In this document: in pieces, positions 5,442-27,031 of the stretch | Layout: each line of letters begins with the position of its first letter | Numbering within the stretch: position 1 is the first letter of the stretch | Program-made: the position numbers and the translations under genes | Notes under the pieces: generated by a model | Database searches by the model: none | Told to the model about the DNA's origin: nothing | The model's input: the letters and a program-made list of their open reading frames with translations, nothing else | NCBI RefSeq assembly: GCF_037902255.1 | Contig: NZ_CP147990.1 | Span: 3,960,001-3,992,000, forward strand | Direction: 5' to 3' | Source: Candidatus Electrothrix sp. GW3-4 | GTDB lineage: Bacteria; Desulfobacterota; Desulfobulbia; Desulfobulbales; Desulfobulbaceae | Length of the DNA: 32,000 nucleotides

Positions 5442-6197
5442 TCAGGCTGCTTTTGAACAGCATTCCTGGGAAGATTGTTCTGCGGGCCGTTTCAGAACCG
5501 ACATAACCGCTGCCAATTCAAGCAGAATGCCAAGCCCTTCCTGTACCTCTGGGCGTTTCATGGCAGACATCATGCCAAAAATACCCTTAACCGGTTTGAC
5601 TTCGTCAAGGTCAATTGCCTTAACCCTGGTGCTGACCCGCTCGCCGATCTCCATCATCCGCTCAAAGTCATCAAACAAACCGCGTTTCTTGAGGCTATCC
5701 AGACGCTCAATCATATCGTCAACAACTGGCCCGCCCAACTGGGCAACATCCCGTCTCATGTCCATAAAAGAACTAAGCAACTTCATCATCTCGGCCATAT
5801 TCCCCATATTGACGATGAACTGCCTGATCAGTTCCTGGAGATTTTCTCCTTCAAAGCCCTGGAAAGCGGTTTGCAGGCGAAGGGCCAGTTCCTGAAACAT
5901 ATCCTTGCTGTATGGCTCAAAATCCCTTTTAAAGTCCATAATACTGTTCAGGGTCTTGAGAGCCTCAGCAATGTTGCCGCTGGATGCCAGGGACTGGCCG
6001 ACCATGTCTCCGACATCTTCCAGTTCCACATTTTTATCCAGACCACTCAGGCGTGCTGTGGCCTCATGGACCATTGAATGGACCAGAGGTTCCAACTCCT
6101 GCTTCAGCTCCACATAGGGTCTGACAGCACGTTTTGCTTCCCGCACTTCCTCTGTGAGTTCATCAAGGCGAGCGAGAATCTTCTCTTCATTGGTCAT
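5442..6197 (-). CDS. DUF1641-like protein, the usual partner of SQR/NDH-2-like flavoproteins
   Basis: Helical, repeat-like protein (..MDFKRDF.., ..FMDMRRDV.., C-terminal GILLELAAVMSVLK) located immediately downstream of the flavoprotein gene. This pairing is typical of the DUF1641 family. Confidence 0.7.
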   Translation of the reverse strand: MTNEEKILARLDELTEEVREAKRAVRPYVELKQELEPLVHSMVHEATARLSGLDKNVELEDVGDMVGQSLASSGNIAEALKTLNSIMDFKRDFEPYSKDMFQELALRLQTAFQGFEGENLQELIRQFIVNMGNMAEMMKLLSSFMDMRRDVAQLGGPVVDDMIERLDSLKKRGLFDDFERMMEIGERVSTRVKAIDLDEVKPVKGIFGMMSAMKRPEVQEGLGILLELAAVMSVLKRPAEQSSQECCSKAA

Positions 6198-6208: not shown

Positions 6209-7438
6209 TTATTCCTGAACCTTACCCGCAAGAGACATCTGGGCCTCAAGCGGCAATTCCTCACCAGTCAACAGTTTGTTCCAGTAGACCCATTTGAACA
6301 TCATCTTGCCCCAATGATTGGCCTTGGTGTCGCCAAGGAGAGAAAAGGGTCCGAGACCAGGCAGGGGGAATTTACCAGGCAGCGGCTCGTACTCATAGTT
6401 GAAGTCAATGAGAGAGGCCTTACCAAAGCCGGTTTCAATAAAGCAGTTGGAATGTCCGTCATAGTCGGGTCGAACCGGCTCATCATTGATCTCCCGCATA
6501 AAGTTCTCTACCATGATTTCTGCGGAAAAATGGGCAACTGAACCGGCCTTGGAGGTAGGTATGGTTGTATTATCCCCAAGGACATACATATTTTTGTGAT
6601 TTTCCGCCTGCAAGGTATGGTTATTCGTCTTAACGTAACCGACCTCATCCATAGCAACCTCGGAATTGACCAGATAGCGCGCTCCCACATTGGGTGGAAT
6701 GGAAACCAGCAGATCCCATTCAATTTCATCACCTGATGCGGAAATAAGCTTGTTATCGTTGCAGTCAACCTCGGCAAGGATAAAATCCGCTGTAACCTTG
6801 ATGTTCTTGTCGTGCATCATCTTGGTAAAGTAGGCGGATGCCTTGGGTTTGGTAAAGGCGCCAGTCATGGGGGTGACAAAATGGATTTCAATATCATCAC
6901 GGACCCCTCGCTCGGTAAAATACCAGTCAGCAAGGTAAACGAATTCCAACGGGGCAACCGGACATTTATAGGGAAATTCGGCAATATCCAGCACCATCTT
7001 ACCACTTTTAAAGCTGCGCAGTTTCTTTTCCAGATTTATCGCCCCTTCCAGGGTGTAAAAATCAAAGACCTTGGTCTGCCAGCCGTCCATCATGCCTGGA
7101 ATCTCTTCCGGGGCCAAACTCACACCGGAACAAACGATGACTTTGTCGTATTCATATTTACCCGCTGTGGTCTCAACGACTTGCGTCTCCGTGTCAACGC
7201 CGATGATCTCATCAATGACAAAGTTGATCCCCTTGCCGATAAACTCGCTACGGGTGCGAACAATTTCTTCGGGCTTGTACATGCCAAAAGGAATAAAGAT
7301 CAGGCCGGGCTGATAAATATGTTTGTCATCTTTATCAATGACCGTGATTGACCATTCGTCACGATCCAGCTTTTTGCGCAAATTATTTGCAACCATTGTT
7401 CCTGCACAGCCCGCTCCAAGAATAACCAACTTTTTCAT
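6209..7438 (-). CDS. FAD-dependent pyridine nucleotide-disulfide oxidoreductase (sulfide:quinone oxidoreductase / NDH-2-like)
   Basis: N-terminal dinucleotide fold MKKLVILGAGCAGTMVA and a second GD motif (YVLGDNTTIPTSKAG). Length and layout fit the SQR-like family. Confidence 0.8.
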   Translation of the reverse strand: MKKLVILGAGCAGTMVANNLRKKLDRDEWSITVIDKDDKHIYQPGLIFIPFGMYKPEEIVRTRSEFIGKGINFVIDEIIGVDTETQVVETTAGKYEYDKVIVCSGVSLAPEEIPGMMDGWQTKVFDFYTLEGAINLEKKLRSFKSGKMVLDIAEFPYKCPVAPLEFVYLADWYFTERGVRDDIEIHFVTPMTGAFTKPKASAYFTKMMHDKNIKVTADFILAEVDCNDNKLISASGDEIEWDLLVSIPPNVGARYLVNSEVAMDEVGYVKTNNHTLQAENHKNMYVLGDNTTIPTSKAGSVAHFSAEIMVENFMREINDEPVRPDYDGHSNCFIETGFGKASLIDFNYEYEPLPGKFPLPGLGPFSLLGDTKANHWGKMMFKWVYWNKLLTGEELPLEAQMSLAGKVQE

Positions 7439-8271
7439 CGTTCATCTCTCCTTTGCGACTTCTGTTCGTTGACCGATCAAGACGATCGGCCCAATTTGAC
7501 TGCCATTGGAAACAGGGAAGAGAATGTCTTCATCTCAACACCTGGATCAGCTTCATGATGAAATTTTGAAGCTAAAGAATGAAGTACCACAAAGTACAAT
7601 CCTGGTCAATGAAGTTTTTTACCACCTCGTGGTATTCAAGACACTATTCAACTCACCTGGGACATCCAGCAACACTCCGCAAAAAAGAAATATCTTTGTG
7701 AGACAAGGAAATTTCTCAATACAGACATGTGGTTCAACATCTCAGGATGCTGCTTGAATGAGCAGCAGGTAACAGAGTAAAAAAAATTCAACGACGATAA
7801 AAAAAATTACCAATCATCATGCTGCCTGAAGAACAATCTGAAAAAAAAGAAAAGGAGGAGGGGACAGAGAAAGTCTCTTTTGAACCGTACAGCCCTGCTC
7901 GGCTCTCTTGCCATAATTGACGAAGGCAATTAACGGAAACCAGAAGCCCTGCTGTGAAACTCGGCCTTCCGGCTCTATTAATTGCCCTCACTGCTATTTG
8001 ACAGCATACCGCCCCTCTTGTCAAAGAAAAACCAACGAAAATACAGCAGGTTAGATGTGCTACACCCGGTGCATTATCAACGTATAAAAAATATACACAG
8101 TATAACTGTCAAACATTGTTGAACTATATATAGACTACTATAAGCCAGACTTCAACCACCCAAAACAGTATGCGAAATTAATACTCATCACCAATAACCA
8201 TAGAATACTATCCGCAAACACAAAAGGGATGCGATTATGACGTAAGCATCTACCAGGGTCGCGTGACCAGC

Positions 8272-8298
8272 GCGTGGCCCGGTTTCTTTTTGCCCTAC
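8272..8298 (+). repeat. 27-bp direct repeat, left copy; embedded in a terminator-like hairpin plus T-tract
   Basis: gcgtgGCCCggtttctttttgccctac matches 9253-9279 at 23 of 27 positions, including 18 contiguous identical bases (ggtttctttttgccctac). The upstream GGG-T-CGCG...CGCG-TGG-CCC stem followed by GGTTTCTTTTT resembles an intrinsic terminator. Confidence 0.8.
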
Positions 8299-8700
8299 AT
8301 TTTAGATCAAATGAGACGGTCTGACCAGTGCCTTTTTTCTAATATCTCCAATTTTTTGTAACGTATCAATGAAATTTTATAACAATTATGTCAAACTTCT
8401 CTTTTAACAAACTTTTATCCTCTTTTTTTTCAAAAAAAGAGTGAGAAAAAACAAAAGTTTTCACCCTCTCCTCCCTGTGCAACTCACTTGAATAGCAACT
8501 TTTTTCATACCCACCAATAAGAAAAACAACTTACTGATAATAGATAGAGTTATCAACTTATTGTTTTTACAATATTTCCATTGACTTTAATACAATATTG
8601 AACTTATTTATCTGTTTGTTCAATGGTGGCGACGAGCTCCTTAACGTAATCATCTCTTTTTCCAATCAATTACGTCAAAATCTGTACTAGGTGTTTTTTT

Positions 8701-8985
8701 ATGAATACTAAATTGAATTGCTGGGAATTTAAAAAATGTGGAAGAGAGCCAGGAGGAAGGAATGTTACACGATATGGGCTTTGTTCAGTACCCGTAGAGA
8801 TAGATTGTGACGGTCTTAATGGCGGAAAAAATGGCGGACGATCCTGTTGGTTATGGCGAGAAGTCGCTTGTGGAAAAATCATGAAGAAATCCTCTGTGCA
8901 GAGGATTAGAGAATGTCGTGAATGTAATTTTTACATTTCAGTCAAAAAAAACAGGGTAACGGAGCTATGCGCGAAAATTTTTTGA
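8701..8985 (+). CDS. Small Cys-rich protein with two Cys-Trp motifs ('two-CW'-like), copy 1
   Basis: MNTKLNCWEFKKCGREPGG...GKNGGRSCWLW...CRECNFY. An AGGTG sequence lies 7 nt upstream of the ATG. It is a paralogue of the next ORF with the same Cys/Trp spacing. Confidence 0.7.
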   Translation: MNTKLNCWEFKKCGREPGGRNVTRYGLCSVPVEIDCDGLNGGKNGGRSCWLWREVACGKIMKKSSVQRIRECRECNFYISVKKNRVTELCAKIF

Positions 8986-9248
8986 ATTGTTGGGAGGTAA
9001 AGGATTGCGGAAGAGAACCAAACGGAAAAAATGTCCCTTTACATGGTGTTTGTCCGGTTTCGGTTGATTTTCTTGTGGATGGTATTCATAATGGAAAAAA
9101 TGGAGGGCGCTGTTGCTGGGCTTTTGCTCCTGGCGTCACAAAAGAGAGTTATGACATCTCCAGTTACTATGAAAAGGCGCTAGGATGCCTTGGGTGTGAA
9201 TTCTACAAATCAGTTAAAGATACAACTGTATTGCTTGTTCGATTATAA
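8967..9248 (+). CDS. Small Cys-rich protein with two Cys-Trp motifs ('two-CW'-like), copy 2
   Basis: MRENFLNCWEVKDCGREPNG...GKNGGRCCWAF...CLGCEFY. A GGAG sequence lies just upstream of the ATG. It overlaps copy 1 by 19 nt. Confidence 0.7.
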   Translation: MRENFLNCWEVKDCGREPNGKNVPLHGVCPVSVDFLVDGIHNGKNGGRCCWAFAPGVTKESYDISSYYEKALGCLGCEFYKSVKDTTVLLVRL

Positions 9249-9252
9249 GAGA

Positions 9253-9279
9253 GCGTGATCTGGTTTCTTTTTGCCCTAC
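9253..9279 (+). repeat. 27-bp direct repeat, right copy
   Basis: gcgtgATCTggtttctttttgccctac starts 5 nt after the stop of the second two-CW gene and pairs with 8272-8298. Confidence 0.8.
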
Positions 9280-9357
9280 CCCCAATCCCGTCTGATTTTG
9301 ACTGTGATACCTGGGTACACAGAAAAAGCCCCCTGAAGTCAGTTCTGATTATACACA

Positions 9358-9380
9358 GGACCTCTCAGAGAGGTTTTCTC
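9358..9380 (+). terminator. Weak hairpin plus T-run; possible terminator of the two-CW gene pair
   Basis: acctct-cag-agaggt followed by tttctc, located between the convergent two-CW genes and recR. Confidence 0.3.
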
Positions 9381-9439
9381 GTGATGATGTTACCCCTCCG
9401 TTCCAACACCGGTCAAGTTCACAACTTTTCTTCTCTTAT

Positions 9440-10045
9440 TCATTTTTCTATAAACTGCCTGGATTCTATAGCTCTTGAGAGCGTATGTTCGTCTGCATAC
9501 TTGATGTCCATCCCCATAGGTATACCGCAGGCAAGGCGGGTCACCTTGACCGGCAAACCCGACAAATGATCAATCAGGTAGGAGGCAGTAGCTTCGCCCG
9601 GTACTGTGGAGCTGGTCGCGATCAGAATCTCCTCAATCCCCTGGCTTCGTACCCGCTGAAAGAGCTCACGAATCTTGAGCTCATCCGGTCCGATGCCCTC
9701 CATAGGAGCCAAAACCCCGTGGAGAATATGGTACACCCCGCGAAAGGCACCGGTTTTTTCAATGGCCAGCAGATCACCGGGTTCCTCCACCACGCAAACC
9801 AAGCGGTTATTGCGGCGGGCATCCTCACAGATACGACAGGGATCGTTCTCGGAAAAGGCAAAACAACGGCTGCAAAGCTGAATAGATGAATGGAGCTCAG
9901 CCAGACTTGCTGAGAGATTGAGGGCCTCGGCAGGAGGACGGCGCAGGAGGTAGAGAGCAAGTCGGGAGGCGGTCTTCTGACCGATACCCGGCAACCGGGT
10001 CAGATCGCTCATCAGCCGTTCCAGTGCCGGGGGAACAACCTGCAT
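9440..10045 (-). CDS. recR: Recombination protein RecR
   Basis: N-terminal helix-hairpin-helix LPGIGQKTASRLALYLL, a C4 zinc finger (CSRCFAFSENDPCRIC) and a Toprim region. It sits in the conserved dnaX-ybaB-recR order. Confidence 0.95.
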   Translation of the reverse strand: MQVVPPALERLMSDLTRLPGIGQKTASRLALYLLRRPPAEALNLSASLAELHSSIQLCSRCFAFSENDPCRICEDARRNNRLVCVVEEPGDLLAIEKTGAFRGVYHILHGVLAPMEGIGPDELKIRELFQRVRSQGIEEILIATSSTVPGEATASYLIDHLSGLPVKVTRLACGIPMGMDIKYADEHTLSRAIESRQFIEK

Positions 10046-10439: not shown

Positions 10440-12308
10440 TTATTCGTCAACCTTTTCCTGAGGCAAAGCCCCACGAAAACGCGGTCCAACCCGAATATCG
10501 CCAACTTGGCCGCTAAAGATATCCACAGCAGCCAACACGAGCGAATCATTCGCCAATTTCTGACGTTCCTGCCGCACCGCGGCTGCACTGTCCGGATCTG
10601 TGGCACAGGCCGAAGAGTTCGGCACCTTAAAGGTCACCTCCAGCTCCTCCTGAAAAAAATCCATGGCAAACTCGGTCAACTGAACAAGATTTTCTTTGCT
10701 TCCAAGGAGCTTACAATCCGCTGATTCATCATAGTTCACGGTCAGAACACCGTTTTCCAGACGGGCTGAAGAGGAACTTTTCAGGGCAGCCCCCATCCAG
10801 GTTACCCGTTCCTGCACATAGTCGACAAACGCTGGCCAATGCTTGCGCACATCTTTTTTCTGTACACGGGATAAGGCCGGGACATCTCCGTCTTGCGCTG
10901 AAGGAGGATACTGTGCTGATGCTTCGGGCGGTTCTGGTTCTGGCGGGCGCAGTTCTTCCACAGGGGGAGGCCCTTGCGGAGGAGGTGCTACCAATTCAGG
11001 ATCTTTTTTTTTTTCGGCCTCGGCAGGAGGTACCGGCTGTGCAGACGAAGGAGGAGGTGACTTTGTCGATCCCTTGCCCTGCTCCGCCTGCGGAACCTGC
11101 TGACGTATCTGCGACGGCTGCTGTGACGGAATCGTTTGCCCGTCCCCCTGTTGTTGCGGCAGGGCTACTCCAGCCAACACATCGTCCAAGCGGGTGAGCA
11201 GGTCCGTCACCGGCACCACCTCCCCCACCTGCACGGCCCGAATAAAGGTCATCTCCACAGCGAAACGGGGACGTGAGGAGAAAGCGGCCTTTTCTAACCC
11301 CTCCAGCAGGAGATTGAACATCATGAACAGGGTTTGGGAGGAATGGGCCGCTGCGACCTCCTGCAAAAGAGCGAGTTCATCCGCAGGGAGATCAAGGAGG
11401 CGGGCCGGGTCCTGACTGACACTGCACACCACAAGGCTGCGAAACCAGGCCAGCAGCTCATTGATAAAGCGTTTGATGTCCATGCCGTAGTTGTAGACCT
11501 TATCCAGATTGCTCAGGGCAGCGCTCAGGTCTTTGCTCAAGAGGGCACGGGCAAGATCAGCTATCACCTCGTGACTAACCAGCCCCAGCACGTCAGCCAC
11601 CTCTTCACCAGTGACGTTCTCGCCGCAATAGGAAAAGACCTGGTCCAGCAGGCTAAGGCCATCGCGCACCGAACCGCCTGCCTCCCGCACCACCATATTC
11701 AAGGCAGACTCATCAATGCTGATCCCTTCCTGTTCGGCTAAAGAGGCAAAATGGGCCGCCAACTCGGCATGGGCGACCCGCTTGAGCTCGTAGCGCTGAC
11801 AGCGGGAAAGGATGGTCACCGGCACCTTGTGCAATTCCGTGGTGGCAAACATAAAGTAGACATGCTCGGGCGGCTCCTCAAGGGTCTTGAGCAAGGCATT
11901 AAAGGCCTCGGTGGTGAGCATGTGGACTTCATCAATGATGATGATCTTAAACTTGGAGCTGGTGGGCATAAAACGGATATTTTCCTTCAGCTCCCGGATC
12001 TCCTGAATACCCCGGTTGGAGGCACCATCTACCTCGTGCAGATCAACGGAACTGCCTGCCATGATCTCCTTGCAGGAACGGCATTCGTTGCAGGGTTCAG
12101 GTGGTTCTCCCTTTTCGCAATTCAGGGCCTTGGCCATGATGCGGGCAAGGGTGGTTTTACCGGTACCGCGCACCCCGCTGAAGATCAGGGCATGGGGCAC
12201 CCGGTTCTGTACTAATCCGTTTTGCAGGGTACGGACAACGGCTTTCTGGCCGACCACCTGAGCAAAGGTCTGGGGTCGGGATTTTCTGGCGAGGACGAGG
12301 TAAGACAC
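10440..12308 (-). CDS. dnaX: DNA polymerase III subunit gamma/tau
   Basis: GTG start. Clamp-loader AAA+ motifs are present: GVRGTGKTT, the zinc module CNECRSCKE, DEVHML and SRCQ. A Pro/Gln-rich linker and a tau C-terminal domain follow. Confidence 0.95.
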   Translation of the reverse strand: MSYLVLARKSRPQTFAQVVGQKAVVRTLQNGLVQNRVPHALIFSGVRGTGKTTLARIMAKALNCEKGEPPEPCNECRSCKEIMAGSSVDLHEVDGASNRGIQEIRELKENIRFMPTSSKFKIIIIDEVHMLTTEAFNALLKTLEEPPEHVYFMFATTELHKVPVTILSRCQRYELKRVAHAELAAHFASLAEQEGISIDESALNMVVREAGGSVRDGLSLLDQVFSYCGENVTGEEVADVLGLVSHEVIADLARALLSKDLSAALSNLDKVYNYGMDIKRFINELLAWFRSLVVCSVSQDPARLLDLPADELALLQEVAAAHSSQTLFMMFNLLLEGLEKAAFSSRPRFAVEMTFIRAVQVGEVVPVTDLLTRLDDVLAGVALPQQQGDGQTIPSQQPSQIRQQVPQAEQGKGSTKSPPPSSAQPVPPAEAEKKKDPELVAPPPQGPPPVEELRPPEPEPPEASAQYPPSAQDGDVPALSRVQKKDVRKHWPAFVDYVQERVTWMGAALKSSSSARLENGVLTVNYDESADCKLLGSKENLVQLTEFAMDFFQEELEVTFKVPNSSACATDPDSAAAVRQERQKLANDSLVLAAVDIFSGQVGDIRVGPRFRGALPQEKVDE

Positions 12309-12310
12309 GG
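12214..12310 (-). repeat. dnaX 5'-end repeat, copy A (the functional gene start)
   Basis: First ~32 codons of dnaX, with the GTG at 12308. This is the reference copy for copies B and C. Confidence 0.9.
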
Positions 12311-12749: not shown

Positions 12750-12779
12750 TGTTCCTCCTGATTGTTCTTACTCTGCTCT

Positions 12780-12876
12780 AACCTATTTTGCAGGGTACGG
12801 GCAATGGGTTTCTGGCCGACCACCTGGGCAAAGGTCTGGGGTCGGGATTTTCTGGCGAGGACGAGGTAGGACACGG
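12780..12876 (-). repeat. dnaX 5'-end repeat, copy B (dnaX' remnant, 41-codon ORF)
   Basis: By hand alignment there are about 8 mismatches over 97 nt versus copy A. It translates (GTG at 12874) to VSYLVLARKSRPQTFAQVVGQKPIARTLQN..., against MSYLVLARKSRPQTFAQVVGQKAVVRTLQN for dnaX. Confidence 0.9.
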
Positions 12877-12893: not shown

Positions 12894-13805
12894 CTATTTT
12901 TTACGATGGATATCATCATGACAAACAGTGCAGAGCGTGACAAGATTGTCTTCTGTATTTCCTCCGCCTGTTGCATGTGTTTTTTGGTGATGGAGTTCCA
13001 AATGACGTGGGTCGGACCGGTTCCATTCCTCATGTGACCATGCGCAGACAGTGCATTTATAATCGTCTCGCCGCAGGACATTGCGTTGAACAGGATCGGG
13101 AATACGGCGGTCATGTTCAGGACTTTGGCGATCAGCTTCCAGCAGATAAACTCCGACCTCAAGGTCGGGGCGTCCTGTATTTTTAGTAACAATCGGCCAG
13201 CCGTACTCGGTGCGTAGCTCCCTCACTCTTCTTGCCCACTCCGACTTGTCCCTGGCAAGATACTTCAATTCCTCGCCGGTTATTTTCTGACCGATATTCG
13301 TCCTGAAATACTTCAACAGTCTATCACGAACAGAAATATTTTCCCTGCGTATCTCGTTCGCTACATTCCAGCGATGAGCAGCATCCCTATCCTGCTCATC
13401 GGAAAGCAATATATAGTCCGAAGTCCCCATCGCTGCTGCATCAATATCTACAAGAGGAAACTCATTTTCTTCCGCCATCTGCGTAGCTGTCAGGCCGCTC
13501 GCTATCGACCAGCCGAATTGGACTCTCAACTCACGTATCCTCCGAGCATATTCCTGAATGCCCGAGACAACAAGCAGTTCATCTCCGCTGATGATCACTC
13601 CTTGGTATTTCAAGAAATAATGCAGTATCCTGTCGCGGGCACTGCGGGCCTCTTCAGCAGGAATGAGGGATTTCCCCAGGTCGCGCAACTGATGATAGCA
13701 TGGAACAAGGGAAAGTACCTTCTGCCGCAAATTATCAGAGCACAATTCTTCTTCAAAATCTATCAACAACTCCAGCAGCTGTTTTCGTATCGCTTCCGCT
13801 TTCAT
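12894..13805 (-). CDS. HNH-family endonuclease; probable type II restriction enzyme partner of the adjacent methyltransferase
   Basis: C-terminal HNH motif CTVCAW...HLELHHQKTHATGGGNTEDNLVTLCTVCHDDIH. Two internal ~50-aa repeats (RDRILHYF...ARRIRELRVQFGWSI and RDRLLKYF...ARRVRELRTEYGWPI) lie N-terminal to it. It overlaps the dcm gene by 4 nt. Confidence 0.8.
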   Translation of the reverse strand: MKAEAIRKQLLELLIDFEEELCSDNLRQKVLSLVPCYHQLRDLGKSLIPAEEARSARDRILHYFLKYQGVIISGDELLVVSGIQEYARRIRELRVQFGWSIASGLTATQMAEENEFPLVDIDAAAMGTSDYILLSDEQDRDAAHRWNVANEIRRENISVRDRLLKYFRTNIGQKITGEELKYLARDKSEWARRVRELRTEYGWPIVTKNTGRPDLEVGVYLLEADRQSPEHDRRIPDPVQRNVLRRDDYKCTVCAWSHEEWNRSDPRHLELHHQKTHATGGGNTEDNLVTLCTVCHDDIHRKK

Positions 13806-15010
13806 GTATCACCCCTGCTGTCCAGTAATACCCTGACTATATCAGCCACCCTTGCCGCAAGCAGAGGGGGAACAGCGTTACCGATCTGTTTAGCAATTTC
13901 AATTTTCGACCCGGTAAAACGAAAGCTGTCCGGAAAACTTTGAAACCGTGCTGCTTCCCTATGAGTGATCGGACGATGCTGCTCCGGGTGCAGGTAACGA
14001 CCTTTTTCCGGCTTAAAAAACTCTGTCCGTATCGTCACCGAGGGCCGGTCCCACCAGAGCCGACCGAATAGATCTGTACCGCCGGATTTCTTTCTGATCC
14101 AGCATTTCGGAGTTAATTCGGGAGCGACTCGCTGCAAATCAAAGCGGTTCATTCCCTCCTGCGGAATAGCCCTGTATCTTTTTCGGCTGAGTTCGGTAGG
14201 ATTTCTTCCGAAATGCAAATTAAGCGGCGGAGCTGTTTCTCTGATTTCCGTCCCTTCAGGCGGAGGAAGGTCCTTAATCGCATCTCGTACCGTTTTCCAA
14301 TGTTGAGGAGAAGATAAAAACTCCTGCTTCTCAAACGGCAGCAACAGCTGCTTGCTCTTTCCGTTCGGGTTGCAATGCGTTTTTCTCGGAGGAAAGAGCA
14401 TTGAGGGATCTGCAAAAGTACAGCCGATGATAAACGCCCTGGTACGAGTCTGTGGAACACCGTAGTCGGCAGCTATCAGCTTCTCCTGATAGACTTTAAA
14501 GCCAAGGGCTTGCGCCATCCCGACAATTTCCCCATGTTCAAAGGTACCAAGCAGTTGCGGTACGTTTTCCATAACAAATACTGAAGCCCCGCATTGCTCA
14601 ACAACTTTCAGGAAAGGACGCCAGAGTTCCTTCCGAGGGTCCTCAGCGCGTTTCTTATTCAACAGACTGAAGCCTTGGCAGGGAGGGCCTCCTATCACCA
14701 CGTCGGCACGGGGAATCCTGATCTGATTGTCTTTCAGTATTTCCGCAAGATCACCGGCAACACAGTGCGGACCGAAGTTCTCATTATATGTATCAACACA
14801 AAACTGATTACAGTCATTCGCCCAAACCGATTGAAAGGGCTGTCCAAAGGACTCGGAAAACCCTAATGACATGCCGCCAGCTCCGGCAAAGAGATCAATC
14901 AGCCGGTAACGCTGCGGGGTTTCTTTGAGCAAGGCACCGGAACAGCGCGTTCCATAGGAACGTTGGTCTTCGCGTAACAGCAGCATACTCTTCATGTGGT
15001 CAGAACTCAT
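13802..15010 (-). CDS. dcm: DNA (cytosine-5)-methyltransferase
   Basis: Canonical C5-MTase motifs are present: DLFAGAGGMSLGF (I), GGPPCQGFS (IV), ENV (VI), QTRTRAFIIG (VIII) and GNAVPP (X). Confidence 0.95.
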   Translation of the reverse strand: MSSDHMKSMLLLREDQRSYGTRCSGALLKETPQRYRLIDLFAGAGGMSLGFSESFGQPFQSVWANDCNQFCVDTYNENFGPHCVAGDLAEILKDNQIRIPRADVVIGGPPCQGFSLLNKKRAEDPRKELWRPFLKVVEQCGASVFVMENVPQLLGTFEHGEIVGMAQALGFKVYQEKLIAADYGVPQTRTRAFIIGCTFADPSMLFPPRKTHCNPNGKSKQLLLPFEKQEFLSSPQHWKTVRDAIKDLPPPEGTEIRETAPPLNLHFGRNPTELSRKRYRAIPQEGMNRFDLQRVAPELTPKCWIRKKSGGTDLFGRLWWDRPSVTIRTEFFKPEKGRYLHPEQHRPITHREAARFQSFPDSFRFTGSKIEIAKQIGNAVPPLLAARVADIVRVLLDSRGDT

Positions 15011-15066
15011 AAGCCGTTTTGCAAGGTTCGGACAACGGCTTTCTGGCTAGGATGAGGTAGGACACG
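15011..15066 (-). repeat. dnaX 5'-end repeat, copy C (internally deleted dnaX' remnant, 21-codon ORF)
   Basis: GTG at 15065 gives VSYLILARK... It matches copy A on both sides of a ~41-nt internal deletion lying between the two (c/t)tttctgg repeats. The remnant ORF overlaps the dcm ATG. Confidence 0.8.
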
Positions 15067-15848: not shown

Positions 15849-15908
15849 AAAATGCTATGATTACATGCCCGTCACAAAATGCTATGATTACATGCCCGTC
15901 ACAAAATG
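15849..15908. repeat. Tandem 27-bp direct repeat (two perfect copies plus a 6-nt start of a third)
   Basis: aaaatgctatgattacatgcccgtcac occurs at 15849-15875 and is repeated exactly at 15876-15902. The next unit begins aaaatg and then diverges. Confidence 0.9.
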
Positions 15909-16415: not shown

Positions 16416-16437
16416 TGCTCAGTCACTTTATTCTTCT

Positions 16438-16536
16438 GGCTCCCAAGCTCCAGCTTGGGAGACCTTATTCCTGAAGCTCTGCTTCTTGTATGAAGCGGAG
16501 CTTAACGGTGTCTGTGCTCGAGCAGAACTTGGGCAC
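16438..16536 (+). repeat. ~100-nt structured intergenic repeat, copy 1 (terminal inverted repeats plus internal hairpins)
   Basis: ggctcccaagctccagcttgggag...gaagctctgcttc-ttgtat-gaagcggagctta...cttgggcac. About 12 differences from copy 2 by hand alignment. Confidence 0.85.
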
Positions 16537-16543
16537 TAGAAAT

Positions 16544-16741
16544 CTACTGATTCAATTCAGGACAGGAACTCTGTCGATGAGCTTTGTTCATGAGCTTGGG
16601 TCTCAGCCTAGTCAGTCTGTCACCTACCTTTTGCTGATGGGACTTATACTCTTCGCAAATGGCATCAAGATCATAACCGAATTTCTTGGAATGCTCGTTT
16701 CGATATTGTCGTATTTCGTCTATAATCGGATCTTTCATCAT
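16544..16741 (-). CDS. Small conserved hypothetical protein (DPIIDEIRxxRxEH family), paralogue of 18163..18351
   Basis: MMKDPIIDEIRQYRNEHSKKFGYDLDAICEEY... aligns with MIDDPIVEEIRRFRREHAAEYGNNLQRIVEAL... It is flanked on both sides by the ~100-nt repeat. Confidence 0.55.
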   Translation of the reverse strand: MMKDPIIDEIRQYRNEHSKKFGYDLDAICEEYKSHQQKVGDRLTRLRPKLMNKAHRQSSCPELNQ

Positions 16742-16790
16742 TCATCACCTAGCAGTTCTTGAGGAGAGCATATTTCAGGGCAGTTGTTCT

Positions 16791-16890
16791 GGCTCCCAAG
16801 CTCCAGCTTGGGAGCACGTATTTCTGAAGCTTTGCTTCTTGTTTGAAGCGGAGCTTCACGGTGTCTGTGCGCAAGCAGAGCTTGGGTGCC
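16791..16890 (+). repeat. ~100-nt structured intergenic repeat, copy 2
   Basis: ggctcccaagctccagcttgggag...tgaagctttgcttc-ttgttt-gaagcggagcttca...gagcttgggtgcc. The ends GGCTCCCAAGCTC and GAGCTTGGGTGCC form a 13-nt inverted repeat with one mismatch. Confidence 0.85.
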
Positions 16891-24126: not shown

Positions 24127-24810
24127 TTACGATACAATATCTTCAACCTGTTGAATAAAATTCTGCAGGCTATGCAGGCAATTTGGATCTGACTTTATCC
24201 TGCTGCGCAACTCATCAATATAATAGGATTCCGTAACCCCCCTTGGCTCGGATTTGCGGTAGGAAGAGGTTATTTTTTTCTCACGCAACATGGTTTTTAA
24301 GTAATGGAAATGATAATCACCGATTGATCCGCTATATCCTTGAGGTTGTCTCATCTTTTCAGGATCGTTTTGAGCCGTATTATAGTGACCGGTAAAAGCG
24401 GAAACTTCAGCAGAAGAAGGGTTTCGTGCGTAAATACGGCGGTTGCCGAGAAACCATGTCTCCATGCAGACAACCTGCGGCAGGATGACAACTTCACAGT
24501 TATTGAAGACAACATTATGATCAATGATGAATTCTTCGACTTCTTTCACTTTCTCCGTTGCCGAAACATCATCAGTATCAATCGCCAGAACAAAATAGTC
24601 AAATTTTCCCGAAGCATTCACATCAGCAGCAGAATCAACAAGATGATTATCAAGGATACTTGGAAAGCCGCCGCCGCTGATCAAATAGTAGTTATCCGCG
24701 AGAACATCAGAGGGAAAATCAACCCGTTTCAGCTGAGGCGCAAGATATGCCAGCCATTTCGGATACACCTTCCGCTCGGTTTTTCCCTCCACCAAAAAAT
24801 AGACATTCAC
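24127..24810 (-). CDS. Toprim-like protein (DUF4276 / RloB / AriB-like), putative nuclease effector
   Basis: The N-terminal MNVYFLVEGKTE supplies the Toprim Glu, and a later FVLAIDTDD supplies DxD. It overlaps the upstream ATPase gene by 4 nt. The gene is AT-rich. Confidence 0.65.
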   Translation of the reverse strand: MNVYFLVEGKTERKVYPKWLAYLAPQLKRVDFPSDVLADNYYLISGGGFPSILDNHLVDSAADVNASGKFDYFVLAIDTDDVSATEKVKEVEEFIIDHNVVFNNCEVVILPQVVCMETWFLGNRRIYARNPSSAEVSAFTGHYNTAQNDPEKMRQPQGYSGSIGDYHFHYLKTMLREKKITSSYRKSEPRGVTESYYIDELRSRIKSDPNCLHSLQNFIQQVEDIVS

Positions 24811-25913
24811 GACTCCACTCCTTCGGAGTAGATATCAAGATTGATTAATTGGGTAAAGGCTTGATGCTTTGATTTATCGAAATGAAACTCGGCAGCATCG
24901 CGGGCGGTCACTACACTGCCTTTTCTGGTAACGATCTTCCAGTTTGTATGATTGATGTTGTTGATTATATACGGATGATGACTTGTAATAATAAACTGAA
25001 GCCCTCTTTCAGAAGAAAGAATACTACTGGTCAGTTCGTCAATGCAGTTTATGCCAAGGCTGTTTTCAAATTCATCTATTAAGATCAGGCTGGAATCTGC
25101 GCATAAATGAAGCTGCGCTATATGAAGCAGCGTCTTGAGCATACCTGATGATATGTTAGAAATCCAATCAGCTACGCCCATTTCTTTAATTTGAATCTCA
25201 AGAGTAAAATGTTTTACAGCAGTTTCTATTGAAAACGGCACAGGTTCAATTCGCACTTCTTCAACAGAAGGAAAAATATCAATAAAACTGTTTACGATGC
25301 TGTCAAACAGTTGTCTTTCTTTCTTGCAGGCAAAATACAATTTCTCATCAAGAGGTATTGGGAGGTTGCGAACTTCGCCTATCCCAGAATATTTATTTAT
25401 ATCTTTGTCAAAAGACGAAGAGAAAGATGCCTTTATATCCATAACAGGAAATATGATTTTTTCAAATTCCTTTGCTGCTTCCTTTATTTGCTCTTCTTCC
25501 CTGAGTAGATACAATATACTTTGATCATTAGAAAGTTTTACTGTTTTTTTATTATTAAACAATATCCCGTTACGATCTCTCGTTACGATCAGCTCATTTT
25601 CCCTCTTAACCGATTCAGTTATGATAGATATCCCACTTGTATGATTTTCATCATTTTTAAACGAAACGTCAGTATCTTCAAATTCCCCCTCCCATGTATA
25701 CAGAGTTCCGCCTGATGATAAAAATTCAATATACCACTTAACACCTTTTAACGATTCCCCTTTTACTATCCTTTTTAAATCAAGAATTGAGTTCAATATA
25801 CGCGTCTTGCCCACTCCAGATGCCCCGACAAGCAACGTGAGCTGATCAAGGGACAGGGGTTGAAGCTCCCAGCCCGTTGTTCTGTCAGCAAAAAAAAATG
25901 TTTGTATCCGCAT
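24807..25913 (-). CDS. ABC/AAA_21-type ATPase, partner of the Toprim protein
   Basis: Walker A GASGVGKT, a signature-like SSGMLKTL, Walker B LILIDEFENSLG and an H-loop ITSHHP. The gene is AT-rich. Confidence 0.8.
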   Translation of the reverse strand: MRIQTFFFADRTTGWELQPLSLDQLTLLVGASGVGKTRILNSILDLKRIVKGESLKGVKWYIEFLSSGGTLYTWEGEFEDTDVSFKNDENHTSGISIITESVKRENELIVTRDRNGILFNNKKTVKLSNDQSILYLLREEEQIKEAAKEFEKIIFPVMDIKASFSSSFDKDINKYSGIGEVRNLPIPLDEKLYFACKKERQLFDSIVNSFIDIFPSVEEVRIEPVPFSIETAVKHFTLEIQIKEMGVADWISNISSGMLKTLLHIAQLHLCADSSLILIDEFENSLGINCIDELTSSILSSERGLQFIITSHHPYIINNINHTNWKIVTRKGSVVTARDAAEFHFDKSKHQAFTQLINLDIYSEGVES

Positions 25914-26008
25914 TATATAGCCTCGTTCTGATAACGATTACCCCGTACATACGTATCCACGTCATTAGCTACAATCACGCCGTAGTTGATCACGCCCAGC
26001 TTCCTTAC

Positions 26009-27031
26009 TTAACCCAAACCAGTACGTGATGTAATCTCTTCTATCTGTTGAATAAAATTCTTTTCATTCACAAAGCTCACATCATACATGCTCGTCAACC
26101 CTTGGCTCTGTTTGTCACTCAACCCCACAGCACAAATCAGAAACTGGCCGTCATCAAGCTTCAGGCGTTTCTTCAAGACGGAGTATTTCTCAATATCCTT
26201 GCGAAATTCTCCGGTCTTGCACTCAATGCATAGCGGTATGGTACCGTTGATAAGAAAAAATACATCAAGTTCATGCTGGTCTTCGTTTTGAAAAATCACA
26301 GAGAGATTACGAAGACAGGCAACAGGAATGTCCTTTTCACGGAAAAAATCCAACAGCTTCATAAAGACAAACCACTCCATCCATTCTCCGTTAAAGAAGT
26401 TCACTATTTTAGGCGCAGTTTGCAGCGTCAACCGAACGATCTTTTCCTGCTTTTGATAAAAATATTTGGCAACAAACGAGTAGTCATACAAATCCTTGCA
26501 GAATTGAGTTATGACCTTAATATCTTTTTGGCTTTTTTTATTGAGTGTGAGTTTAACCGTTGTATACCCTTTCCGCTGGATGTATTTAATTTTATCACTT
26601 ACAAGCCTGAGCGTGTCATAATGATCTCCCAGCTGCACTGCAACCTCATCGAAAAAACCGGTGGTATCAAGAGCCTGCTGGTTAACATTAACCTGAACAT
26701 GACGCTCTTGAAAAAACTTCACTATCGGTTCATATTGCTGTTTGCTTTTAAGCTCAGCAGTATTGTAAATATCAACCTCAGATAAAGATTGAAGCGACTC
26801 ATTTTCTTCTGGGGTTGATGCATCCTGAGATGCTTGTGGATCAACCTGACTGCGTAATTGCTGCAACTCTTTTTTCTGAGCCACAAACTGTTCAATAACC
26901 TTTGTAACAAAGGCGACGGTATCATAAATGGGACTCGGTGTTTTGCAGTGAGGACATTTTACAGATTTCCCCTGATAATCATTAGAAACTTCCCGAAGAT
27001 GTCCACATTTGCTACACCGAAAGAGGGCCAT
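26009..27031 (-). CDS. Zn-ribbon protein with a C-terminal PD-(D/E)xK nuclease domain (Card1/DUF1887-like)
   Basis: The N-terminus is CSKCGH...CPHCKT. The C-terminus GEWMEWFVFMKLL...HELDVFFLINGTIPLCIECKTGEF fits the E...D...ExK restriction-endonuclease-like core. The ~200-aa middle region is unrecognised. Confidence 0.6.
   Translation of the reverse strand: MALFRCSKCGHLREVSNDYQGKSVKCPHCKTPSPIYDTVAFVTKVIEQFVAQKKELQQLRSQVDPQASQDASTPEENESLQSLSEVDIYNTAELKSKQQYEPIVKFFQERHVQVNVNQQALDTTGFFDEVAVQLGDHYDTLRLVSDKIKYIQRKGYTTVKLTLNKKSQKDIKVITQFCKDLYDYSFVAKYFYQKQEKIVRLTLQTAPKIVNFFNGEWMEWFVFMKLLDFFREKDIPVACLRNLSVIFQNEDQHELDVFFLINGTIPLCIECKTGEFRKDIEKYSVLKKRLKLDDGQFLICAVGLSDKQSQGLTSMYDVSFVNEKNFIQQIEEITSRTGLG

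Follow-up and report, generated by a model that had tools for sequence, protein, structure and literature searches.

Several kinds of cytoplasmic sensor domain depend on a bound metal. CZB (chemoreceptor zinc-binding) domains and the hemerythrin domains of chemoreceptors such as DcrH, both of which also exist as stand-alone proteins, are four-helix bundles with histidine plus cysteine or histidine plus carboxylate ligands. Iron-sulfur (Fe-S) sensors of O2, NO or redox state, among them the WhiB-like proteins, FNR and the PAS domain of NreB, use four cysteines; the WhiB-like proteins are stand-alone, about 100 aa long, and act through partner binding. Four cysteines are likewise present in zf-CW (PF07496), a eukaryotic CW-type zinc finger that reads histone tails. 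Here we analyse two small overlapping open reading frames (ORFs), A and B, in a 32,000-nt stretch of Candidatus Electrothrix sp. GW3-4 (contig NZ_CP147990.1, positions 3,960,001 to 3,992,000), referred to below as the window. They are two paralogous and quite ordinary stand-alone members of the two-CW family (NCBIfam NF045718), which is catalogued but uncharacterised. We lean toward reading A and B as cytoplasmic sensor modules that would bind a metal (Fe-S or Zn) through cysteine and act as dimers, possibly as an A/B heterodimer.

Against NF045718 (two_CW_domain), A scores 89.6 bits and B 87.4 bits (E ~1e-25). Both matches span the model from end to end (profile positions 1-79 of 80), and both scores are more than double the 35 bits set as the curated cutoff for a whole protein against this hidden Markov model (HMM). 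Each protein carries two Cys-Trp dipeptides, in the contexts NCWEF... and GGRxCW (C7-W8 and C49-W50 in A, with their equivalents in B), and all six invariant cysteines of the family. BLASTP aligned the two at 46% identity across 83 aa (E = 1e-23). Common to both are C7, W8, C13, C28, C49, W50, C72 and C75 (A numbering, used throughout); C57 is found in A only. An earlier inspection of the letters and translations alone (the sequence-only reading) had described two overlapping paralogous ORFs of about 93 aa with a strict Cys/Trp pattern and had named an NCBIfam "two-CW domain" as their likely family. Both statements hold, with lengths of 94 and 93 aa and an overlap of 19 nt. The HMM search that it recommended thus placed A and B in NCBIfam. 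It found no Pfam family for them, the only match at E <= 1 being a sub-threshold TBCC match of A.

The window contains no further two-CW copies. A decayed third copy was considered on account of a weak tblastn match at 8230-8268, and a filter-free HMM search of the six frames of 7400-8720 gave nothing there; local DNA alignment likewise gave nothing except a 30-nt repeat, described below. The PADLOC models of anti-phage defence contain no family for A or B, and searches of viral contigs and of phage and plasmid records yielded no relatives. A itself had no exact counterpart in the assembly index. On reading the sequences of A and B, without use of a predictor, neither a signal peptide nor a hydrophobic segment was seen.

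The family to which A and B belong is large and sharply conserved. A word-indexed protein search returned 601 homologues, of which the best, 60-78% identical, come from Candidatus Electrothrix (cable bacteria), and an exhaustive profile search returned 1,641 clusters at 50% identity with E <= 1e-3 (1,060 with E <= 1e-10). Each of 361 unique domains has C7, C13, C28, C49, C72, C75 and W8; W50 is kept in 98% and C57, in a CGG motif, in 94%, so that C57 does not strictly define the family. A proline follows C28 in most members. The hosts belong by name mostly to anaerobic lineages: Desulfobulbaceae/Electrothrix, Thermodesulfovibrionales, Methanomicrobiales, Anaerolineae/Dehalococcoidia, Coriobacteriia and Elusimicrobia. 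Compared with its Electrothrix orthologues, A shows ratios of nonsynonymous to synonymous substitution (dN/dS) of 0.13-0.21, and B one of 0.43. The A genes of three Electrothrix loci (L001-L003) are 76-79% identical to A with dN/dS of 0.13-0.16; the B gene of L001 is 65% identical to B, with the dN/dS of 0.43 just given. The sequence-only reading had taken the ORFs for real, selected proteins. The family match, the abundance of homologues that keep the Cys and Trp positions, and the low dN/dS, which shows purifying selection, bear this out, and a spurious ORF is excluded as an explanation of either gene.

Domain architectures were compared in a genomic sample of 80 loci with 94 two-CW domains (labels L...) and in the top 150 representative clusters (labels P...). 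Stand-alone proteins of about 100 aa account for 95 of the 150 clusters (63%); a further 30 have an N-terminal two-CW domain with a C-terminal extension, 18 a C-terminal domain with an N-terminal extension, 5 consist of two two-CW domains only, and 2 have other forms. Similarly, 74 of the 94 genomic domains stand alone and 20 are followed by at least 60 residues. The two-CW domain is found N-terminal to HisKA plus HATPase_c, to a hybrid histidine kinase with REC and Hpt domains, to PAS, to a cNMP-binding domain plus Ser/Thr kinase, and to PP2C; in P0130, P0192 and P0196 it is instead the C-terminal part, preceded by GGDEF, a chemoreceptor and a histidine kinase, respectively. In the chemoreceptor it is placed after the cytoplasmic signalling domain. 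Four Desulfobulbaceae loci (L051, L053, L064 and L030) encode an adjacent kinase and phosphatase, each of which starts with its own two-CW domain. These counts, of a kind that the sequence-only reading had called for, uphold its statement that the domain occurs on signalling proteins. Because the stand-alone form is the commonest, however, its description of the domain as usually N-terminal needs correction, and C-terminal fusions occur as well. Nor is a stand-alone, duplicated arrangement as noteworthy as it had seemed, since tandem two-CW genes are also present in L014, L040, L044 and L057.

A separate form of 204-237 aa was seen in five Nitrospirae metagenome-assembled genomes, one of them labelled Magnetobacteriaceae (L010, L023, L048, L062 and L078). 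Here the two-CW domain precedes a second conserved domain, of about 110 aa, at the C-terminus with the motif …KEPGFL.H.Y.KSK…SLCPS…L.GSKRLCK.DLVDELM.IDA…. L048, scanned as the representative, had no Pfam match, and no gene context is shared among the five loci.

The distribution of the domain on signalling outputs points to a cytoplasmic input, or sensor, domain. The six invariant cysteines fit a metal or redox-sensor role. The mostly anaerobic host lineages and the proline after C28 would fit an Fe-S cluster or other oxygen-labile cofactor, although this is only suggestive. The AlphaFold2 (AF2) model of A, built from a 122-sequence alignment, has a mean predicted local distance difference test score (pLDDT) of 82.4 and a predicted template modelling score of 0.69. 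In this model short helices are predicted at residues 7-11, 22-25, 49-61 and 69-73 and a long C-terminal helix at 76-93, the rest being loops, as would be expected of a metal-stabilised mini-domain. Foldseek, run against the PDB with E values allowed up to 10, found no match to the model, and no PDB sequence was retrieved by a profile search. Alignment of the two halves of the domain by hhalign superimposes C7/W8/C13/C28 on C49/W50/C57/C72 (E = 0.014), a weak hint of an internal duplication with three cysteines in each half plus C75.

An alternative is that the two-CW proteins are zinc-finger-like proteins that bind DNA, RNA or protein, with zinc needed for folding only, and serve as adaptor or targeting modules. 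Six or seven invariant cysteines in about 80 aa with little regular secondary structure would suit such proteins, as would the many conserved Lys and Arg residues (NCWEFKKCGRE, GGKNGGR) and the failure of Pfam to match any classic Fe-S motif. Fusion at both ends of histidine kinases and to chemoreceptors, GGDEF proteins, PP2C and Ser/Thr kinases is, however, the pattern of an input domain rather than of a nucleic-acid-binding one. Moreover, the mostly anaerobic character of the sampled hosts is not required by a plain zinc finger, and no known zinc-finger model in Pfam, zf-CW included, was matched. We regard a purely structural zinc role as unlikely.

The sensor reading that we prefer can be put as follows. 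The two-CW domain would be a small cytoplasmic input module whose fold is held by a metal centre on the six invariant cysteines, joined by the seventh in most members. The metal would probably be an Fe-S cluster, with zinc as the alternative. Oxidation, loss or gain of metal, or binding of a small molecule at the centre would alter the domain and the helix that follows it, and the altered helix would act on the fused output domain or, where the domain stands alone as in A and B, on a second protein as its partner. The domain is probably dimeric, and the pair may exist as homodimers or as an A/B heterodimer; B would be the degenerate and more dispensable subunit. Indirect support for working in pairs or dimers comes from natural proteins that contain the domain twice. 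Both domains are confirmed by NF045718 in P0121 and P0122, and the same layout is seen in P0124 and P0187 from their sequences and a custom HMM. The partners fused to two-CW domains also belong to enzyme classes that work as dimers.

Several results weigh against this reading, or against parts of it. A domain that mediates protein interaction or localisation could also account for these architectures. None of the Pfam models for zf-CW, ferredoxin-type, WhiB-like or CZB domains matches A or B, and a full-text literature search on the two-CW domain and NF045718 produced no relevant paper. The AF2 model of the double-domain protein P0122, from a 4-sequence alignment, is unusable (pLDDT 36). In L002, from E. 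laxa, the B copy contains a frameshift and a TAA stop and is the only split domain among the 80 loci; it may be decaying or may reflect assembly errors. An obligate A/B heterodimer is made doubtful by this apparent pseudogene and by the absence of C57 from B. Finally, no conserved neighbourhood across the 80 loci emerged when 713 neighbour ORFs were clustered by BLAST and 117 immediate neighbours were scanned with Pfam, and no partner protein can be proposed.

The few neighbours that recur are specific to lineages, namely selB and selA, which flank the gene in 6-7 Thermodesulfovibrionales loci. In six of these (L022, L038, L050, L067, L069 and L071) selB and selA stand on either side of a stand-alone two-CW gene that is encoded on the opposite strand. 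No selenocysteine-containing two-CW variants were seen among the 80 loci.

The neighbourhoods and the tandem arrangement of small, paralogous, Cys-rich ORFs also bear on whether A and B might be precursors of ribosomally synthesized and post-translationally modified peptides, or secreted Cys-rich peptides. Radical-SAM genes do make up 6 of the 117 immediate neighbour proteins scanned. Yet no maturase or transporter is conserved nearby, and no neighbour family recurs in more than 5-7 loci, which are close relatives. The 80-aa domain is conserved throughout, without division into a leader and a variable core, the sequences as read, again without a predictor, show no signal or leader cleavage motif, and the domain is fused inside cytoplasmic signalling proteins. 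A peptide-precursor role is accordingly very improbable.

The overlap between A and B was compared among Electrothrix loci. In the window A ends in AAAATTTTTTGA and B lies in the -1 frame relative to A. In L003, A ends at AAAAAATGA, about 20 nt before B, which lies in the +1 frame, and in L001 about 140 nt separate the two genes. The overlap in the window looks like the product of an indel in a run of adenines, through which A would have lost its original stop and gained 13 non-conserved residues. From these alignments, the 19-nt overlap is best described as a recent, lineage-specific accident and not a conserved coupling device. With these frames, slippage by -1 on T TTT TGA where A ends would fuse A to B in imitation of the natural double-domain proteins, and the hypothetical linker of about 17 aa would be similar in length to those of P0122 and P0187. 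However, a canonical X XXY YYZ slippery heptamer is absent and the overlap itself has the appearance of a recent indel. As the arrangement is not conserved in L001 or L003, we consider such a frameshift fusion hardly credible.

The positions of A and B and of the features around them are collected in Table 1. The pair lies in a region of low guanine-plus-cytosine (GC) content, 35-43% in 7500-9400 compared with about 52% elsewhere in the window. The sequence-only reading had spoken of a long AT-rich leader; the composition is as it said, but most of this DNA is upstream intergenic sequence rather than leader. At all Electrothrix loci examined (L001-L005, L046 and the window), the two-CW genes have 37-43% GC compared with 48-53% in neighbouring ORFs, whereas over the whole family the difference is only about 2 points. 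In all of these Electrothrix loci the AT bias has been kept despite an orthologue divergence of dS 0.4-1.0.

Table 1. Features of the window in and around the two-CW gene pair (window coordinates).
Feature	Position	Strand	Description
ORF A	8701..8985	+	94-aa stand-alone two-CW domain protein; Cys at all seven family positions (C7, C13, C28, C49, C57, C72, C75)
ORF B	8967..9248	+	93-aa paralogue of A; lacks the near-invariant C57; evolves faster than A
AGGTG, Shine-Dalgarno-like	8689..8693	+	7 nt before the ATG of A; read from the sequence, putative function
ATTGAC block	8580-8586 (element 8580..8609)	+	about 115 nt before the ATG of A; invariant upstream of A in five aligned Electrothrix loci
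Candidate -35 TTGACT with weak TTATTT	8581-8586; 8604-8609	+	TTATTT 17 nt after TTGACT; putative promoter
Type III sulfide:quinone reductase (SQR)	6209-7438	-	divergent upstream neighbour; NF049943 "selenoprotein subtype", 629 bits against a cutoff of 525
DUF1641 protein	5442-6197	-	next after the SQR gene
Terminator-like hairpin and T-run	8256-8290	+	overlaps the left 30-nt repeat copy (8269-8298)
Right repeat copy	9250..9279	+	begins 2 nt past the B stop codon; one hairpin arm missing

Within the window the pair is found between the SQR gene and recR-ybaB-dnaX, and 1.26 kb of low-GC DNA without a convincing ORF or Rfam match separates it from the former. None of SQR, DUF1641, recR, ybaB and dnaX occurs at the Electrothrix two-CW loci. 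In L001 the A/B pair is instead divergent from a TonB-dependent receptor, and in L002 and L003 a 653-aa homologue of that protein has the same position. When the window was aligned with the Electrothrix loci at the DNA level, only the two two-CW genes aligned. Since the neighbours differ and nothing else aligns, the pair occupies different chromosomal sites in related species.

The SQR neighbour raises the question of whether the stand-alone proteins might be small ferredoxin-like carriers of electrons with no regulatory role. The predominance of the stand-alone form of about 100 aa would agree with this, as would the mostly anaerobic hosts, the seven cysteines, which would suit two clusters, and the divergent arrangement of the pair and the type III SQR gene. 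But A and B do not contain the ferredoxin motif CxxCxxCxxxCP and have no ferredoxin match in Pfam, and about one third of the family members are fused to signalling outputs. Nor is there a conserved link to a redox enzyme, the SQR gene being a neighbour in the window only and its place being taken in L001 by the TonB-dependent receptor and in L002 and L003 by its homologue. We judge a carrier role improbable, more so than a purely structural zinc site.

Upstream of A, the ATTGAC block is the only one conserved in the aligned upstream regions of the Electrothrix loci; it was not called by a scan with consensus promoters. Farther upstream, at 8535-8555, is the inverted repeat TGATAA-N9-TTATCA, which could be an operator or a hairpin. 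The aligned positions of L001, L003 and L004 also contain short palindromes, with different arm sequences. Nothing significant was found by Rfam in 7400-9450 of the window, in L088 or in L005.

The sequence-only reading had also noted that direct repeats bracket the pair, and this too was confirmed. The copies at 8269-8298 and 9250-9279 match at 26 of 30 positions, share an exact 18-mer core and lie 981 nt apart; shuffles of the window never gave such a match, and within the window the 18-mer is confined to these two copies. Related modules consisting of a hairpin and GGTTTCTTTTTGCCCTAC, with different stems, are present in the metagenome contigs L086 and L088. These two are among 15 metagenome contigs that match the 18-mer core, a number estimated to be no higher than expected by chance in a collection of that size, and none of the 15 is an empty insertion site. 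Significant locus-specific direct repeats bracket the gene at 7 of 62 stand-alone two-CW loci compared with 13 of 593 control ORFs from the same loci (Fisher p = 0.0014). The seven are L037 (51 nt), L056, L061, L041 (about 100 nt), the window, L005 and L039. In L056 and L061 the repeats, of about 65 nt, duplicate the start of a downstream FAD oxidoreductase; as these loci are apparently orthologous, they are not independent. Bracketing repeats of this kind would fit insertion of a segment that carries a short stretch of homology. We read the pattern as evidence that stand-alone two-CW genes are often inserted or relocated, but not as a demonstration of a dedicated mobility mechanism.

A conserved element of about 75 nt with a tRNA-like TTCGAA core, GGATTCGAAyyTGCGACCCCG...CCCGCATCACTGCG...CTCTGrTTTTGCCCTGTGATACC, was observed beside two-CW genes or terminator modules in Electrothrix-like contigs, at 9751-9830 of L005, on the reverse strand of L088 and at 9283-9311 of the window. 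A 35-nt part of it forms the direct repeat that flanks the L005 two-CW gene. The element matches no Rfam family, and since ARAGORN finds no tRNA genes in the scanned loci (L088, L005, L086, L094 and five Electrothrix loci), this flank is not a tRNA. In L005, which is from E. laxa, the two-CW gene between the repeats is followed directly downstream by a DDE transposase gene (10483-11523, minus strand), in keeping with a plastic region.

Repeats are found elsewhere in the window as well. The first ~100 nt of dnaX (12206-12310, minus strand) are repeated at 12772-12876 (90%) and in part at 15010-15066 (92-93%). Between these copies lie a 460-nt segment and a type II restriction-modification module made up of an HNH endonuclease (12894-13805) and a Dcm methylase (13802-15010). 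The arrangement looks like a cassette that was inserted at the 5' end of dnaX and is flanked by direct repeats derived from its target, the signature also seen at the repeat-bracketed two-CW loci. A 103-nt direct repeat of 89% identity (16431-16533 and 16784-16886) flanks a 90-aa ORF (16490-16762), and a perfect 27-nt tandem duplication occupies 15849-15902. A low-GC island (37-41% GC) at 24807-27031 on the minus strand encodes an AAA_21/AbiLi/AriA-like ATPase (24807-25913) and a CARF/Card1-like PD-DExK nuclease (26009-27031); it is probably a defence island.

A broader hypothesis would join these strands together. The two-CW domain would constitute an unrecognised class of redox or oxygen sensor with a Cys6-7 metal cluster, probably Fe-S, and a fold outside the PDB, deployed on kinases, phosphatases, cyclases and chemoreceptors and as free dimers. 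The diverged, AT-rich A/B pair of the cable bacterium would be a heterodimeric sensor, and the stand-alone genes would spread as small cassettes with target-derived repeats. We offer this full combination tentatively and think it doubtful as a whole.

The significance of A and B derives from an unstudied, sharply conserved family without a structural relative, whose domain is probably a metal-based sensor, and not from any peculiarity of this locus. The family comprises about 1,600 clusters in bacteria and methanogenic archaea, is marked by six invariant cysteines and two tryptophans, and is tied to every major class of prokaryotic signalling output. If the domain is a metal-cluster sensor, it would represent a new input domain for signal transduction in anaerobes and would give a handle on redox sensing by cable bacteria, which span oxygen-sulfide gradients. 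Being small and stand-alone, A and B would be convenient subjects for metal analysis and structure determination.

The Electrothrix proteins depart from the NF045718 consensus in a few respects: the A type deviates between C49 and C72, B lacks C57, and both have shortened C-terminal tails. With zf-CW they have in common only the name and the presence of conserved Cys and Trp in a small domain; the two are unrelated, and the zf-CW model gave no match at E <= 1. WhiB-like proteins, FNR and the NreB PAS domain resemble two-CW domains as small modules with a Cys-ligated cofactor, the cofactor of two-CW being putative, but their motifs and Pfam matches are not shared, and they have four cysteines where two-CW has six or seven invariant ones. 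CZB and hemerythrin domains show no sequence relationship to two-CW (no Pfam match), and the latter differs in its all-Cys character and in having no fold match in the PDB. Their distribution, however, is like that of two-CW, which likewise occurs by itself, at the C-terminal end of chemoreceptors, and attached to GGDEF proteins and kinases.

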